DNA from: a virus
Lineage: Duplodnaviria > Heunggongvirae > Uroviricota > Caudoviricetes
DNA: 35,177 nucleotides
Reading direction: 5' to 3' (one strand)
IMG/VR virus record: IMGVR_UViG_2576861193_000006
The translations under genes and the position numbers were made by a program. Under the pieces are notes generated by a model. That model searched no databases and was not told the origin of the DNA. It worked only from the letters and a program-made list of their open reading frames with translations. Shown here piece by piece: positions 5,235-9,013 of this stretch; within the stretch, counting starts at the first letter, position 1, and every line of letters begins with the position of its first letter.

Positions 5235-5927
5235 TTAATTGTGTCGCTTAAGGGTTTGTGACTGACTGATTAAGACCTTTCCAAAGACCATAAACCGGTG
5301 TTCGTTTTCGCTGGTAATTCCCCATTCGCGGTAAATCTGATTATCAGAAATTACCAGCAGTTTATCAGGTATCATTTGCAGTCGTTTGACGTAAATTTTA
5401 TCATCAAAACCAAATACATATATACCATCCCCATCAAACTGATTGATACTGATATCAACGAAGATGAGATCTCCTGGCTCAATGGTTGGACACATACTGT
5501 CCCCACGAACGTTGATAACTTTAATGTGATTTGCTGGTCGTCCACCAAACATCGATACAGCATTATCAGTTCTGTATTCAATGGCATGAATCACATCAAT
5601 GACATCACCGCCCTGGATAAGGCCATTTCCCGCACTGGCACTGACATCCAGCATTTCAATACGGAATACATCCTTCACCTGCGCAACATCCTCACTAATA
5701 CTGTTTTTACATACAGTATTACTTTTGAGGTCTGAGGTAAAGAGATCAGCAATATCAACACCTAAGCTCCTGGCAATATTACTCAGGGCTTGTTCAGTGA
5801 ATTGTTTCTGCTTACCTGTTTCGAGGCGCGAGATATTCGCCGCATCCACTCCTATTGCTTCAGCGAGATCGGCGATTTTCATGTTCTTCGCCTGGCGAAG
5901 TTGTCTGACTCGATTTCCTATGTTCAT
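5235..5927 (-). CDS. cI: CI-type prophage repressor (HTH_XRE N-terminal domain + S24 LexA-like peptidase domain)
   Basis: N-terminal HTH (QLRQAKNMKIADLAEAIGV), C-terminal S24 features (GDSM ... K); divergent from cro-like gene across an operator region. Confidence 0.9.
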   Translation of the reverse strand: MNIGNRVRQLRQAKNMKIADLAEAIGVDAANISRLETGKQKQFTEQALSNIARSLGVDIADLFTSDLKSNTVCKNSISEDVAQVKDVFRIEMLDVSASAGNGLIQGGDVIDVIHAIEYRTDNAVSMFGGRPANHIKVINVRGDSMCPTIEPGDLIFVDISINQFDGDGIYVFGFDDKIYVKRLQMIPDKLLVISDNQIYREWGITSENEHRFMVFGKVLISQSQTLKRHN

Positions 5928-6024: not shown

Positions 6025-6285
6025 ATGCAATCACCATTACGGAATGTGCGTAAGGCGCACGGATTTACTTTGCAGCATGTTGCTGCGGGCGTTCAGGTCA
6101 ATCCAGCGACGCTGAGTCGTATTGAAAGACTGGAACAAATTCCATCTATCGATCTTGCAGAACGTCTGGCCAATTTTTTTAAGGGTGAAATCAGCGAAAT
6201 GCAGATTCTTTATCCGGCACGTTTTCAATCTAGCCAAAACCAGAATGGGTTTAAACCACAGGAACAGGAGGTAAGCCGTGGGTAA
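6025..6285 (+). CDS. cro: Cro-like HTH regulator
   Basis: HTH_XRE motif (FTLQHVAAGVQVNPATLSRIE); GGAGG 4 nt upstream of ATG; divergent from cI. Confidence 0.8.
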   Translation: MQSPLRNVRKAHGFTLQHVAAGVQVNPATLSRIERLEQIPSIDLAERLANFFKGEISEMQILYPARFQSSQNQNGFKPQEQEVSRG

Positions 6286-6829
6286 GCATCATTGGAAAGT
6301 GGAAAAACAACCTGAGTGGTACGTGAAAGCTGTCAGAAAAACTATCGCGGCATTGCCTGGGGGTTACGCTGAAGCTGCTGACTGGCTGGATGTAACAGAG
6401 AACGCTTTATTCAACCGCCTTCGTGCAGATGGCGATCAGATTTTCCCGCTGGGATGGGCAATGGTTTTACAGCGCGCGGCTGGCACTCACTACATTGCGG
6501 ATGCTGTCGCACAGTCTGCTGGTGGGGTGTTCGTATCGCTTCCTGAAATTGAGGAAGTAGAGAACGCCGATATAAACCAGCGCCTGCTGGAAGTCATCGA
6601 ACAGATCGGGAATTACTCAAAGCAGATTCGTTCGGCAATCGAAGATGGGGTCGTGGAGCCACACGAGCAGACAGCAATTAATGATGAGTTGTATCTGTCA
6701 ATTTCGAAGCTCCAGGAGCATGCAGCACTGGTCTACAAAATCTTCTGCGCTCCAGAAAAGAGTGACGCCCGCGAGTGTGCAGCTCCGGGCGTCGTGGCGT
6801 TTTGTGTCTGTGGAGAAACTAACGCATGA
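6278..6829 (+). CDS. CII-like / YdaT-like regulatory protein (putative)
   Basis: GTG start with AGGAGGT 5 nt upstream; position immediately after cro; weak remembered similarity to phage CII (CP76)-family proteins. Confidence 0.55.
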   Translation: MGKHHWKVEKQPEWYVKAVRKTIAALPGGYAEAADWLDVTENALFNRLRADGDQIFPLGWAMVLQRAAGTHYIADAVAQSAGGVFVSLPEIEEVENADINQRLLEVIEQIGNYSKQIRSAIEDGVVEPHEQTAINDELYLSISKLQEHAALVYKIFCAPEKSDARECAAPGVVAFCVCGETNA

Positions 6830-7236
6830 ACAGTTTAACGGCAAATAACCGTTTGTCGCAACAGCTGGTGGTCAGTGTCGCTGAACACCTGTTGTTACGG
6901 TATGAATGCAGATTACCAAATCACCTGGCTGTAAGTAACCACAGAGAACTTTACCTGACTGTGGGGGGCGAGTTGTGCAGGAACTTAACCGCTGGTTTCG
7001 TGACGGAAGAGGGCTTTATGTCCATGTTATTCGTTGGGAGCCAGAAACACAGCGCGTTATCTATCTTCGCAAAGACTACCCGCATGAGTGCTTTAGTCCT
7101 TTGTGGAAATTCAGGCATGATTTTGTTGAGTGTGAAGGACCACCAGCACATTGATTCTGCCATTCCGGGACGTTACACTGTTCAGGCACCTTATAAAGCG
7201 GGTGCCGGGCGTGGAAACCCGGAATTCACCAAAGCG

Positions 7237-7281
7237 CACAACCGCGCTCTTGCGGTTTTTTTGTGTAATGAGCAGCATTAC
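7237..7281 (+). promoter_or_regulatory. boxA-like CGCTCTT plus hairpins (terminator-like stem with T7 run; GTAATG/CATTAC hairpin)
   Basis: ACCGC/GCGGT stem (7241-7256) followed by TTTTTTT (7256-7262); CGCTCTT at 7245-7251; hairpin 7265-7281; lies inside the long ORF 6826..7977, arguing against that ORF's N-terminal part. Confidence 0.3.
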
Positions 7282-7431
7282 GCCCAAATTATGGTGGGGC
7301 GTGCAGGGCCAACTTCGGTTGGGCCGGGTTCTTTGGTGACCGGTATTTCCACCCCTGTACGTCTCACCACCAATAAGGTCGTGGAAAGCCTTGGTGGTGA
7401 GTTATTAAAAATCACCAAAGAGGCTGCCATC

Positions 7432-7977
7432 ATGGCTACGATCCCAACCCTCACTCAACCTGAAATTGCCATCGTTGATGGTCAGGCTGTTACTTCATCC
7501 CTGGCTGTTGCCAACTTCTTCTCCAAACGTCATGACGATGTACTGAAAAAGATCCGCACGCTTGAATGCTCTGCATCATTCACTGCCCGCAATTTTTCGG
7601 TGAGTGATTACACCGATTGCACAGGCCGCAAACTACCTTGCTATCAAATAACCCGCGACGGCTTTGCGTTTCTTGCTATGGGGTTCACGGGTAAACGTGC
7701 TGCCCAGTTCAAAGAGGCATACATCAATGCCTTTAACCAGATGGAGAAACAGCTTTCAAATCCCTCTGTACTGAGCGACGTTGCACATAACGCCAGCGTT
7801 CTCTATTCCTACATTTCATCAATTCATCAGGTCTGGCTGCAGCAGCTTTATCCTATGTTGGCAAAAGCCGAATCTCCGCTGGCTGTTAGCTTGTATGACT
7901 ATATTAATGATGCTTCGGCACTGGCCTGCCTCATAAATTTGTCGCTGAACCCTTCAGAGGTAAGGGGGCGCAAATGA
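7432..7977 (+). CDS. rha: Rha-family phage regulatory protein
   Basis: Rha domain begins at MATIPTLTQPEIAIVDGQAV...; GAGG upstream of ATG at 7432; the upstream in-frame extension to 6826 is judged not part of the protein. Confidence 0.7.
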   Translation: MATIPTLTQPEIAIVDGQAVTSSLAVANFFSKRHDDVLKKIRTLECSASFTARNFSVSDYTDCTGRKLPCYQITRDGFAFLAMGFTGKRAAQFKEAYINAFNQMEKQLSNPSVLSDVAHNASVLYSYISSIHQVWLQQLYPMLAKAESPLAVSLYDYINDASALACLINLSLNPSEVRGRK

Positions 7978-8198
7978 TCCGGAATATTTTCAAACGGTTT
8001 ACCAATCAGACTTTCCGTTGTCCTCGTCCTGGTCAGTGGTACACCACGCCTGCAGGGCATGTTCTACGTGTCAGCCTGGTTGACCGTGAATGTCAGAAGG
8101 TGATTTGTGAACCGCTGGGCCGTAATTACCGCATCAGTATGCCGCTTATAGCCTTTTGCTCCGGAAAAAACATGAAGCATCTCGGAGGTGCAGCATGA
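7974..8198 (+). CDS. small hypothetical protein (74 aa)
   Basis: ATG overlaps rha stop (ATGA). Confidence 0.45.
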   Translation: MIRNIFKRFTNQTFRCPRPGQWYTTPAGHVLRVSLVDRECQKVICEPLGRNYRISMPLIAFCSGKNMKHLGGAA

Positions 8199-9013
8199 GT
8201 ATGGAGCTGATGGTTAAAGCGATGAAAATTCGAGTGGGTAATCCATTGCGAAAACTGGTTCTGATCAAGCTGGCTGATAACGCCAGCGATCAGGGTGAGT
8301 GCTGGCCCAGCTACCAGCATATTGCTGACCAGTGCGAGATTAGCAAACGTTCTGTGATGAATCATATTGCGGCTCTTTGTGATTCCGGACTGGTAAAAAA
8401 AGTCACCCGGAAAGGTGAAAAAGGTAACTCAAGTAATATCTATCTCCTTCATCTTGATGGTGCAGGAGATTCACTAGGGGGTAGTGCAAATAATTCACTA
8501 TCTGGTGCAGCAAATTCACCAGGTAGTGCAGGAGTTGCACCAGGGGGTGGTGCAGGAGATTCACCCAGAACCAGTCACTCTTTTGAACCAGTCAAAGAAC
8601 CAGTCAATGAACCAATAGCTGTTGGTGCATCTGCTGATGAGTCTGTGCGAGTTCGTTCAAACCGACCGGAATACTCTCCGGAGTTTGAGCAGGCATGGCT
8701 GGCATACCCCAAACGTGCTGGTGGCAATTCAAAATCTGCAGCCTTCAAAGCCTGGAAAGCCCGTTTGAATGAGGGGGTAAACCCCGAAACCATGCTGGAA
8801 GGTGTGAAACGCTATGCGGGCTGGGTATCTGCGATGGGTAACAGCGGCACACAATTTGTGAAACAGGCTGTCACGTTCTTTGGTCCGGATCGTCATTTCG
8901 AAGAATCCTGGGAAGTTCCTGCGGTATCTGCAGCCAGACGTGAGGATCCGTACTTCAAAGCCAGTTACGACAACGTGGACTACAGCCAGATCCCGGCAGG
9001 ATTCAGGGGGTGA
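8195..9013 (+). CDS. replication initiator protein (winged-helix N-terminal domain, O-like)
   Basis: GGAGGTG 4 nt upstream of ATG 8195; N-terminal wHTH (LIKLADNASDQGECWPSYQHIADQCEISKRSVMNHI); Gly/Ser/Ala-rich linker encoded by iteron-like repeats. Confidence 0.75.
   Translation: MSMELMVKAMKIRVGNPLRKLVLIKLADNASDQGECWPSYQHIADQCEISKRSVMNHIAALCDSGLVKKVTRKGEKGNSSNIYLLHLDGAGDSLGGSANNSLSGAANSPGSAGVAPGGGAGDSPRTSHSFEPVKEPVNEPIAVGASADESVRVRSNRPEYSPEFEQAWLAYPKRAGGNSKSAAFKAWKARLNEGVNPETMLEGVKRYAGWVSAMGNSGTQFVKQAVTFFGPDRHFEESWEVPAVSAARREDPYFKASYDNVDYSQIPAGFRG
8459..8607. repeat. candidate origin of replication: five iterons (consensus GTGCA-N5-TTCAC) at 21-24 bp spacing plus three GAACCAGTCA repeats
   Basis: Iterons ending at 8474, 8498, 8519, 8540, 8564; GAACCAGTCA at 8569, 8585, 8598; embedded in the linker of the replication initiator gene as oriLambda is in gene O. 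Confidence 0.55.

Follow-up and report, generated by a model that had tools for sequence, protein, structure and literature searches.

What occupies the 600 bp between a CII-like gene and rha in the early region of a lambdoid prophage, where one long open reading frame (ORF) runs through the whole interval and several other features share its nucleotides? The question is raised by a 35,177-nucleotide (nt) stretch of viral DNA, IMG/VR record IMGVR_UViG_2576861193_000006 (the window, below), in which positions 6826-7431 had been described in a first-pass annotation, made from the letters alone, as an ambiguous interval with overlapping frames, two hairpins, a T-run and a boxA-like heptamer. The listed features are all found where that annotation put them and its observation as a whole is confirmed, and its interpretation (a small unannotated gene, a frameshifted gene and/or a nutR/tR1-like site) is partly supported. 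Our answer, in which we have considerable though not complete confidence, is that the interval is an RNA immunity cassette of the type known from P4, P1 and Gifsy-1, lying inside an eta-like ORF and accompanied by a nested gene for a DUF4222 protein, with both reading frames under selection. It is, in other words, an ordinary member of a known RNA-switch system that is badly annotated in the databases; what is locally distinctive is the dual-coding overlap of a ymfM-like frame and DUF4222 at the 5' end of the cassette ORF.

Two RNAs and Their Pairing Targets

A scan of the whole window against Rfam at gathering thresholds returned no RNA other than isrK and C4, both of which lie inside the interval. 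The upstream one is an IsrK/SeqA-like leader on the plus strand at 7186-7262 (RF01394 isrK, 67 bits with a gathering score of 50, E = 2e-12), and its match ends in an intrinsic terminator, which is the ACCGC/GCGGT hairpin and run of seven T residues singled out in the first-pass annotation. The stem (AACCGC/GCGGTT, 7240-7257, with the T-run at 7256-7262) was picked up independently by a terminator scan, weak evidence taken alone given that 8 sites were found in 4 kb with 3.9 expected, and the hairpin and T-run are kept in 14/14 homologues, in which the stem appears as ACCGC/GCGGT, GACGC/GCGTC or ACACGC/GCGTGT. Counts of terminator pairs were left unused, as RNAalifold on the isrK alignment gave only three pairs and MAFFT misregisters the two classes of stem.

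The downstream RNA is a C4/CI-like antisense RNA (plus strand, 7287-7374; RF01695, 83.6 bits with a gathering score of 45, E = 3e-15) that matches model positions 1-87 of 87 and folds as a long closing stem around two hairpins, with 27 pairs in all. Across 14 sequences every one of the 378 cells (100%) holds a standard pair and 11 pairs have changed on both sides, compared with 34-47% in slid controls; the minimum free energy (MFE) fold of 7186-7445 also reproduces the C4 structure (z = -3.9). RNAs of the C4 type are stable molecules of about 77-80 nt that are excised from a longer transcript, their 5' ends being processed by RNase P in P1 and P4. At the 5' end of C4 there is a conserved AUG, at 7291, which is in frame with rha. 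The pairing of these two RNA genes is itself a recurrent arrangement, since isrK stands immediately upstream of C4, 21-35 nt away, in 15/16 related loci (N15, the P2-like phages P88 and Shae_phiSM, and phiP27 among them), and the sixteenth, P7, carries RF03163 (c4-a1b1) in the isrK position. The spacer between the two RNAs in the window (plus strand, 7263-7286) is variable, with changes in 20/24 columns.

Two segments of C4 have complementary partners both upstream and downstream of it. In the loop of the second hairpin, b' (TCTTTGGTGA, 7330-7339) is complementary to b1 in the leader (TCACCAAAG, 7226-7234) and to b2 downstream of C4 (TCACCAAAGA, 7412-7421), while in the single-stranded joining region a' (TTTCCAC, 7346-7352) is complementary to a1 in the leader (GTGGAAA, 7211-7217) and to a2 downstream (GTGGAAA, 7381-7387). 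The two downstream segments lie in an mRNA target region (plus strand, 7381-7423) that is the equivalent of seqC of P4 and a2b2 of P1, and b2 overlaps the Shine-Dalgarno (SD) sequence of rha, GAGG at 7420-7423. The 13 loci compared carry at least 10 distinct versions of b and about 6 of a, and within each locus all three copies co-vary. The computed b'-b2 duplex has an energy of -17.6 kcal/mol in the window; over the 13 loci cognate duplexes average -18.5 and non-cognate ones -10.4, the cognate b2 ranking first in 9/13 loci, and the cognate a1 ranked first for 13/13 C4 RNAs when a' was paired with a1.

Furthermore, the closing stem of C4 has in its 3' strand (CTCACCACC, 7363-7371) the complement of a conserved GGTGGTGAG (7393-7401) between a2 and b2, a relationship that suggests an alternative pairing in the precursor RNA. 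The corresponding pair in N15, GCTACCACC / GGTGGTAGC, co-varies. Within 7388-7426, the MFE fold pairs CCTTGGTGGTGA with TCACCAAAGAGG, so that the rha SD is also sequestered in a local hairpin, and the sequence that sequesters it resembles b'.

Upstream of the leader is a predicted sigma-70-type promoter (plus strand, 7151-7179) with a -35 hexamer TTGATT at 7151-7156, a 17-nt spacer and a -10 hexamer TACACT at 7174-7179; the predicted start is near 7186, and the -10 hexamer ends 6 nt upstream of the start of isrK. Because it matches 8/12 consensus positions it was missed by a promoter scan that requires 9, and yet 14/14 loci, including P4 and N15, have hexamers with identical spacing, equally far from the start of isrK. 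In P4 this position is where the constitutive promoter PLE is expected, and in N15 it is the start of the antirepressor operon; PLE and the PisrK promoter of Gifsy-1 are the equivalents of the window's internal promoter. BLAST matches from phages that share the cassette alone begin at 7150 or at 7186. A search for a repressor operator at the promoter was uninformative, in that palindromes guessed from the cI-cro spacer matched nowhere, not even in the spacer from which they came.

The Gene Next to the Target Region

Immediately beyond the target region, an internal in-frame ATG at 7432 begins a 181-amino-acid (aa) rha (plus strand, 7432-7977; Pfam Phage_pRha, E = 1e-30), with the Phage_pRha domain covering aa 223-308 of the long ORF. 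The suggestion in the first-pass annotation that rha has its own ribosome-binding site and start codon is therefore well founded, the GAGG at 7420-7423 being that site. The SD/ATG context GAGGCTGCCATCATGGCTAC and an N-terminus of the form MAT(I/V)P.L are common to homologues whose downstream domains differ. Kil of P4 shares them, and its start reads ...EAAIMATTLTPSHPE where the rha start of the window reads ...EAAIMATIPTLTQPE at 7432, with the context EAAIMAT common to both. By analogy with the systems described below, rha is likely to be the regulated output of the cassette.

Two Genes in Two Frames

The small unannotated gene that had been suspected in another frame proved to be genuine. It encodes 59 aa on the plus strand at 6975-7154, in a frame different from that of the long ORF, with a GTG start, a G-rich SD sequence at 6963-6972 and a TGA stop at 7152-7154 that falls within the -35 hexamer of the internal promoter. 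The product matches DUF4222 (Pfam PF13973, 50.9 bits with a gathering score of 27) and phrog_1343 over 59/59 positions (E = 3e-36). Changes among 12 close relatives fall 4/4/17 over the three codon positions, and comparisons with ST64B, a Stx1a phage, a Klebsiella phage and the e14 prophage gave ratios of nonsynonymous to synonymous substitution (dN/dS) of 0.04-0.16 in the DUF4222 frame and 1.2-3.9 in the frame of the long ORF. The gene is intact in 35 further loci from other Enterobacteriaceae, where a start codon stands at the same codon position (29 ATG, 3 GTG and 3 TTG), and an SD sequence is present in the four start contexts that were inspected. This is a real DUF4222 gene under strong purifying selection, one that the Prokaryotic Genome Annotation Pipeline (PGAP) annotates in some Escherichia coli genomes and omits in others.

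The long ORF of 383 aa (the Y frame; plus strand, 6826-7977) is annotated at full length in mEp460, cdtI, ST64B and PhiR47_1. It consists of a YmfM-like N-terminus, the overlap with DUF4222, an 'Ash' stretch across the RNA cassette and the Rha domain, and its start overlaps the stop of the YmfL/CII-like gene (ATGA, 6826-6829; AACGCATGA). The part of the YmfM-like N-terminus that is free of overlap occupies 6826-6974 on the plus strand. Most of the 35 further loci, all from other Enterobacteriaceae, have both the ATGA junction and a homologous N-terminus, with dN/dS of 0.15-0.43 in four groups and of 0.23-0.79 in the window's own lineage, and the N-terminus matches YmfM of e14 (BLASTP, 33% identity, E = 1e-9) and, at aa 48-96, phrog_1170. 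As judged from this conservation, a YmfM-like gene really does start, with translational coupling, at the ATG at 6826, whose link to the cII-like stop had been pointed out in the first-pass annotation. A crude count of 11/14/14 over the codon positions in the 12 close relatives would make 6829-6974 non-coding, a reading overturned by the 35 loci and the dN/dS values.

Beyond 6974 the two genes share 53 codons of sequence, and over these the frame of the long ORF has no premature stop in 37/37 distinct sequences. Synonymous resampling of DUF4222 puts the probability of this by chance at about 0.035, and the overlap is therefore taken to be dual-coding.

An arrangement of the same kind occurs in e14, where the same junction (the ymfL stop overlapping the ATG of MNSLT...), a homologous YmfM ORF and a nested DUF4222 ORF are all present. 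The isrK-C4-rha cassette is missing from e14 and from 18 similar loci, in which the YmfM frame meets, 159 nt into DUF4222, a stop that is absent from the window's lineage. In E. coli K-12 the e14 segment homologous to window positions 6826-7154 (NC_000913 1203822-1204180) holds ymfM (b1148), annotated as 'cell division inhibitor YmfM', and nested in it, in the other frame, is an unannotated 59-codon DUF4222 ORF with a TTG start (position 1204001), GGAG upstream of it and 61% identity to the window's protein; within K-12 ymfM the DUF4222 frame is conserved more strongly than the YmfM frame. The published filamentation clone comprised the whole ymfM ORF, so that both frames were present in the experiment, the nested DUF4222 ORF included, and the publication does not speak of testing the two frames. 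It is conceivable, if on balance doubtful, that 6975-7154 is dual-coding across the Enterobacteriaceae, with the YmfM-type and DUF4222 frames both selected, and that the DUF4222 protein of e14 could explain some or all of the SOS-inducible filamentation attributed to YmfM (SfiC). K-12 ymfM can in any case be flagged as harbouring an unannotated, conserved nested gene.

An Open Frame through the Cassette

The long ORF then continues through the promoter, leader, terminator, C4 and target region into rha. Its frame is open in 11/12 aligned homologues of the window's lineage, and the four indels that separate them are all multiples of 3. The lone exception is Salmonella phage 118970_sal3, in which a 1-nt insertion disrupts DUF4222 as well and is either a sequencing error or the mark of a pseudogene; the insertion (in L009:1501-2659) is equivalent to window position ~7021, and the locus, otherwise nearly identical to that of ST64B, is annotated as two pieces of a 'putative antirepressor'.

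Openness of the frame extends well beyond close relatives. Among 110 distinct IMG/VR loci with C4, 82% have the frame of the C4 AUG open over 47 or more codons upstream, compared with 20-26% for the other frames. For some 60 distinct family members, stops in the variable segments were counted and compared with shuffles as the expectation, and the frame of the long ORF had 4 stops in the spacer (18 expected; 10 and 18 in the other two frames), 1 in the b1 linker (16 expected; 21 and 12 in the others) and 28 downstream of C4 (73 expected; 61 and 96 in the others). In 90/102 loci, moreover, the leader hairpin and the C4 AUG are separated by a multiple of 3 nt.

A Pfam model covers much of this region, Phage_ASH (PF10554) matching aa 117-213 of the long ORF with 57.5 bits against 26 (E = 2e-15), and the match coincides with the stretch from the promoter -10 box to the end of C4. 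Taken with the openness of the frame, this indicates that the Pfam 'Ash domain' is for the most part a reflection of conserved RNA genes together with a frame kept open for the transit of ribosomes. The same model also matches a historic annotation in P4 (NC_001609, L019:8168-8584), where RefSeq retains, over the CI RNA, a coding sequence labelled 'cI gene product (AA 1-137)' and 'transcriptional repressor'. The P4 epsilon protein belongs to PF25738, and a 2021 survey had used PF10554 as its epsilon profile.

Precedents in P4, Gifsy-1, P1 and N15

The closest precedent for the whole arrangement is satellite phage P4. As the P4 passages of one account describe it, citing Forti et al. 1999, an internal start gives a truncated Eta, which is Kil, whereas only transcripts from an upstream promoter yield full-length Eta, whose translation is coupled to that of the preceding gene and prevents termination (PMC10111431). 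That the Rfam models C4 and isrK detect relatives of CI and seqA within genes of the Bro network is reported there as well (PMC10111431). Our scan of P4 placed C4 at 8420-8507, over the CI RNA, and isrK at 8615-8692, over seqA; the long ORF of P4, of 199 codons, starts at an ATG at 8767 that overlaps the stop of ORF88 (CGCATGA) and spans both isrK and C4. P4 and the window thus have in common an internal promoter of the constitutive type, followed by a SeqA-like leader, a CI-like RNA and a target where a nested in-frame gene has its SD, and in both a long ORF whose ATG overlaps an upstream stop (CGCATGA in each) crosses the whole cassette, making the ORF of the window the positional equivalent of eta. 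The window's rha sits at the position of kil, with an SD/ATG and an N-terminus (EAAIMAT..P..PE) in common with it. The differences are equally clear: the window's element is a lambdoid prophage and P4 a satellite; the product of the nested gene is a Rha-family protein of 181 aa in the former and the 65-aa Kil in the latter; the YmfM-like module and the DUF4222 overlap are lacking in P4; and the upstream promoter, PLL in P4, is proposed to be the early rightward promoter in the window. In the P4 scheme, translating the long ORF from the upstream promoter lets transcription escape the RNA immunity, and a Rho-dependent terminator, timm, lies beyond the nested gene; for the window, the depletion of stops and the multiple-of-3 spacing give indirect support to such an escape.

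Gifsy-1 of Salmonella is likewise a lambdoid prophage, with an IsrK that has its own promoter, then a C4-like RNA and then an antirepressor-type gene. In its isrK-orf45-anrP locus transcripts read through a leaky isrK terminator into a C4-like RNA, STnc1160, that is processed (PMC4825925). The antirepressor AnrP depends on translation of orf45, which starts at the conserved AUG at the 5' end of that RNA, and short IsrK was found in experiments to activate downstream translation in trans (PMC4825925). That AUG is the equivalent of 7291 in the window, and the inhibitory helix mapped in Gifsy-1, b-I (IsrK G28/G31 with C162/C159), is the counterpart of a1:a'. Unlike the frame of the window, which enters rha without a stop and extends far upstream, orf45 is closed by a stop and coupled to anrP, and the Gifsy-1 locus adjoins antQ, whereas the window's cassette lies in the early right operon.

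The immI locus of P1 and P7 (c4, a1b1, a2b2, icd, ant1/ant2) and immA of N15 resemble the window in their processed antisense RNA with two pairing segments and repeated targets upstream and downstream, in a downstream target that covers the ribosome-binding site of the first gene of the antirepressor operon, and in specificity alleles that vary between phages. They regulate icd/ant, where the window is proposed to regulate rha, and in P7 the c4-a1b1 element replaces the isrK-type leader.

Variations on the arrangement were met in other phages. In the P2-like Shae_phiSM and P88 (L014, L016: 1611-1985), b2 adjoins the SD of a gene for a 76-aa 'derepression protein' (PF25738, epsilon-like), and the frame of the C4 AUG, although open, is not the frame of this gene. 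In some IMG/VR contigs the isrK+C4 cassette is repeated in tandem, with two or three copies. In L107:9289-11266 (minus strand) each cassette has its own ORF of about 220 codons, and successive ORFs overlap by 4 nt, forming a chain of coupled eta-like genes; tandem C4 copies are about 656 nt apart in L066, L082 and L084, and two copies in L129 are 2.6 kb apart.

How the Cassette Might Work

By analogy with these systems, the cassette would have two states. When the early rightward promoter is repressed, the internal promoter alone would yield mostly the 77-nt leader, stopped at the terminator. Transcripts that read through would be processed to C4, whose a' and b' would pair with a2 and b2, masking the rha SD and blocking the translation of Rha, and the untranslated read-through RNA would probably be subject to polarity or termination, as in P1 and P4. 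The leader's a1 and b1 would compete for the same segments of C4, in cis or in trans, and so set the threshold of the block. When early rightward transcription is on, ribosomes that started at 6826 would already be elongating through the terminator, C4 and a2/b2, and such transcripts would therefore escape the RNA block; a Rha-containing fusion and the downstream replication genes would then be expressed.

Several points weigh against so complete an account. The sequences themselves establish the elements, the RNA structure, the three-way co-variation, both coding frames and the upkeep of the open frame; from analogy with the studied phages we infer promoter activity, RNA ends, processing and translational repression, and likewise the escape by translation, and the role of Rha may be that of an antirepressor, an assignment that is itself putative. 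The data on Gifsy-1 favour activation by the short IsrK, through a structural switch in cis, over simple titration of C4 (PMC4825925). In N15 and P7, which are two of the experimentally studied systems, the frame of the long ORF carries stops, and passage of ribosomes through the cassette is thus no general rule. The sequences used for stop depletion are phylogenetically non-independent, and with weighting by cluster the spacer stops become 3.0 versus 5.5 and 7.8 of 33 clusters, a depletion that is weakened yet present. Finally, the codon-position bias of the long ORF is absent in the cassette, changes there being distributed 15/19/14 in isrK, 21/18/20 in C4 and 15/19/19 downstream; what is maintained through the cassette is, on these patterns, an open frame and no constrained peptide sequence. 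This bears on a statement in the first-pass annotation that its separation of the interval from rha would fail if homologues conserved the 383-aa ORF at full length with synonymous-biased substitutions throughout: full-length conservation was found, and the synonymous bias does not run throughout.

Against this background the rival readings can be weighed. The first-pass annotation had by implication put the 383-aa ORF down to the ORF track, as an artefact, and in its developed form this reading, which we consider unlikely, accepts as functional only a YmfM-like stub, DUF4222, the two RNAs and the 181-aa Rha, the openness of the frame being that of stop-poor conserved RNA. It accommodates the lack of codon-position periodicity over 7155-7431, the way the 'Ash' match runs from the -10 box to the end of C4, the match of the same Pfam model to P4's obsolete 'cI protein', the stops in N15 and P7 and the out-of-frame arrangement in P88 and Shae_phiSM. 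It can also draw on PGAP, which calls the region in three ways in three RefSeq E. coli genomes: as a full 383-aa Rha, as DUF4222 plus an internal-ATG Rha, and as DUF4222 plus an 'ash family protein'. It does not sit well with a depletion of stops that is specific to the non-conserved segments, relative both to the other two frames and to shuffles, nor with the multiples of 3 in the lineage's indels and in the distances from leader hairpin to AUG, nor with the DUF4222 overlap that is kept open against chance, and eta of P4 is a documented translated ORF of just this type. A version in which 'Ash' was only translated RNA and the long ORF spurious had been entertained and was overturned by the stop-depletion tests and the eta precedent. 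At the opposite extreme, the 'Ash' stretch (about aa 117-213) could be a genuine folded domain of the Bro/Rha network, the RNA matches being secondary. The literature does place Ash among the domains of that network, the PF10554 match has an E-value of 2e-15 and the ORF is open in most family members, but the conserved and variable blocks of the peptide track the RNA stems and specificity loops, the variation takes the form of base-pair compensation and a/b co-variation, third-position bias is lacking and the Pfam model begins at the -10 box; we give this idea hardly any credence.

The two remaining alternatives come from the first-pass annotation. In a lambda-type nutR/tR1 site, the boxA-like heptamer and a hairpin would recruit an N-like antiterminator for read-through of the terminator, and the setting is suggestive, with CGCTCTT (7245-7251) beside a terminator and a hairpin on an early rightward transcript between cII-like and replication genes. 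Yet the heptamer occurs 7 times in the window with 4.1 expected, a count reached in 12/100 shuffles, and it forms the terminator loop, which varies freely in homologues (CGCTCAT, CGTAGAT, GCGCCAG); it is a chance match. The candidate boxB hairpin, GTAATG/CATTAC at 7265-7281 in the spacer, has an energy of -7.9 kcal/mol in the window and of 0 to -2.4 in the same spacer of the closest relatives, and is unconserved, and the stretch is fully explained by the Rfam isrK and C4 models. A nut site is thus scarcely to be believed, and what survives of the proposal is a regulatory site on the rightward transcript with a real terminator inside it. A frameshifted or recoded gene, in which the YmfM-like N-terminus and DUF4222 would form one protein through mutation or programmed frameshifting, would account for purifying selection that follows the long-ORF frame to about 6974 and the DUF4222 frame from 6975, in frames that overlap, the open part of the DUF4222 frame reaching back 3-117 nt before its start (54 nt in the majority of loci). 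It is nonetheless very improbable: DUF4222 keeps a start at the same codon in all loci (GTG in the window), with the SD sequences already described; a fusion has no need of the 53 further open codons of the long-ORF frame found in 37/37 sequences; and DUF4222 is known as a stand-alone PHROG family of 59 aa. An RNA cassette within an eta-like ORF, with DUF4222 nested at its 5' end, remains the reading that we prefer.

Genomic Setting, Distribution and Annotation

The interval belongs to the early region of a lambdoid prophage of the mEp460/SfV/ST64B type. Its identity is 99.5-100% with Escherichia phages PhiR40_1 and mEp460 and falls to 86-90% with SfV, cdtI, ST64B and several Stx2c phages, and it is found also in many Shiga toxin (Stx)-converting, SfV-like and ST64B-like phages. 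At least a partial match is present in 1415/5426 complete E. coli genomes, 443 of which have at least 80% of the interval.

Public labels for it are inconsistent: a 383-aa 'Rha' or 'antirepressor', an 'ash family protein', a 'peptidase', or nothing. Non-coding RNA features for isrK or C4 were present in 0/9 of the annotated module records inspected, six from phages and three from E. coli genomes (P7, N15 and P4, annotated under their own schemes, fall outside this count). A P4-type RNA switch ahead of rha and the replication genes offers a hypothesis for how an antirepressor-type protein is gated, in Shiga-toxin phages included, and the a/b alleles would predict classes of heteroimmune specificity.

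Upstream of the interval are a cI-like repressor gene on the minus strand (5235-5927), a cro-like gene (6025-6285) and the YmfL/CII-like gene (plus strand, 6278-6829), which has a Pfam Phage_CP76 match of 54.9 bits, falls in phrog_101 (CII-like activator) and is named ymfL in RefSeq E. coli genomes. After the interval come rha, a 74-codon ORF (7974-8198; phrog_1153) whose ATG overlaps the rha stop, and the replication gene at 8195. The 74-codon ORF aligns weakly with the DUF4222 protein (BLASTP, E = 0.05), and the DUF4222 protein for its part also matches phrog_1153 weakly (E = 0.007), so that this small ORF may be a distant DUF4222 paralogue.

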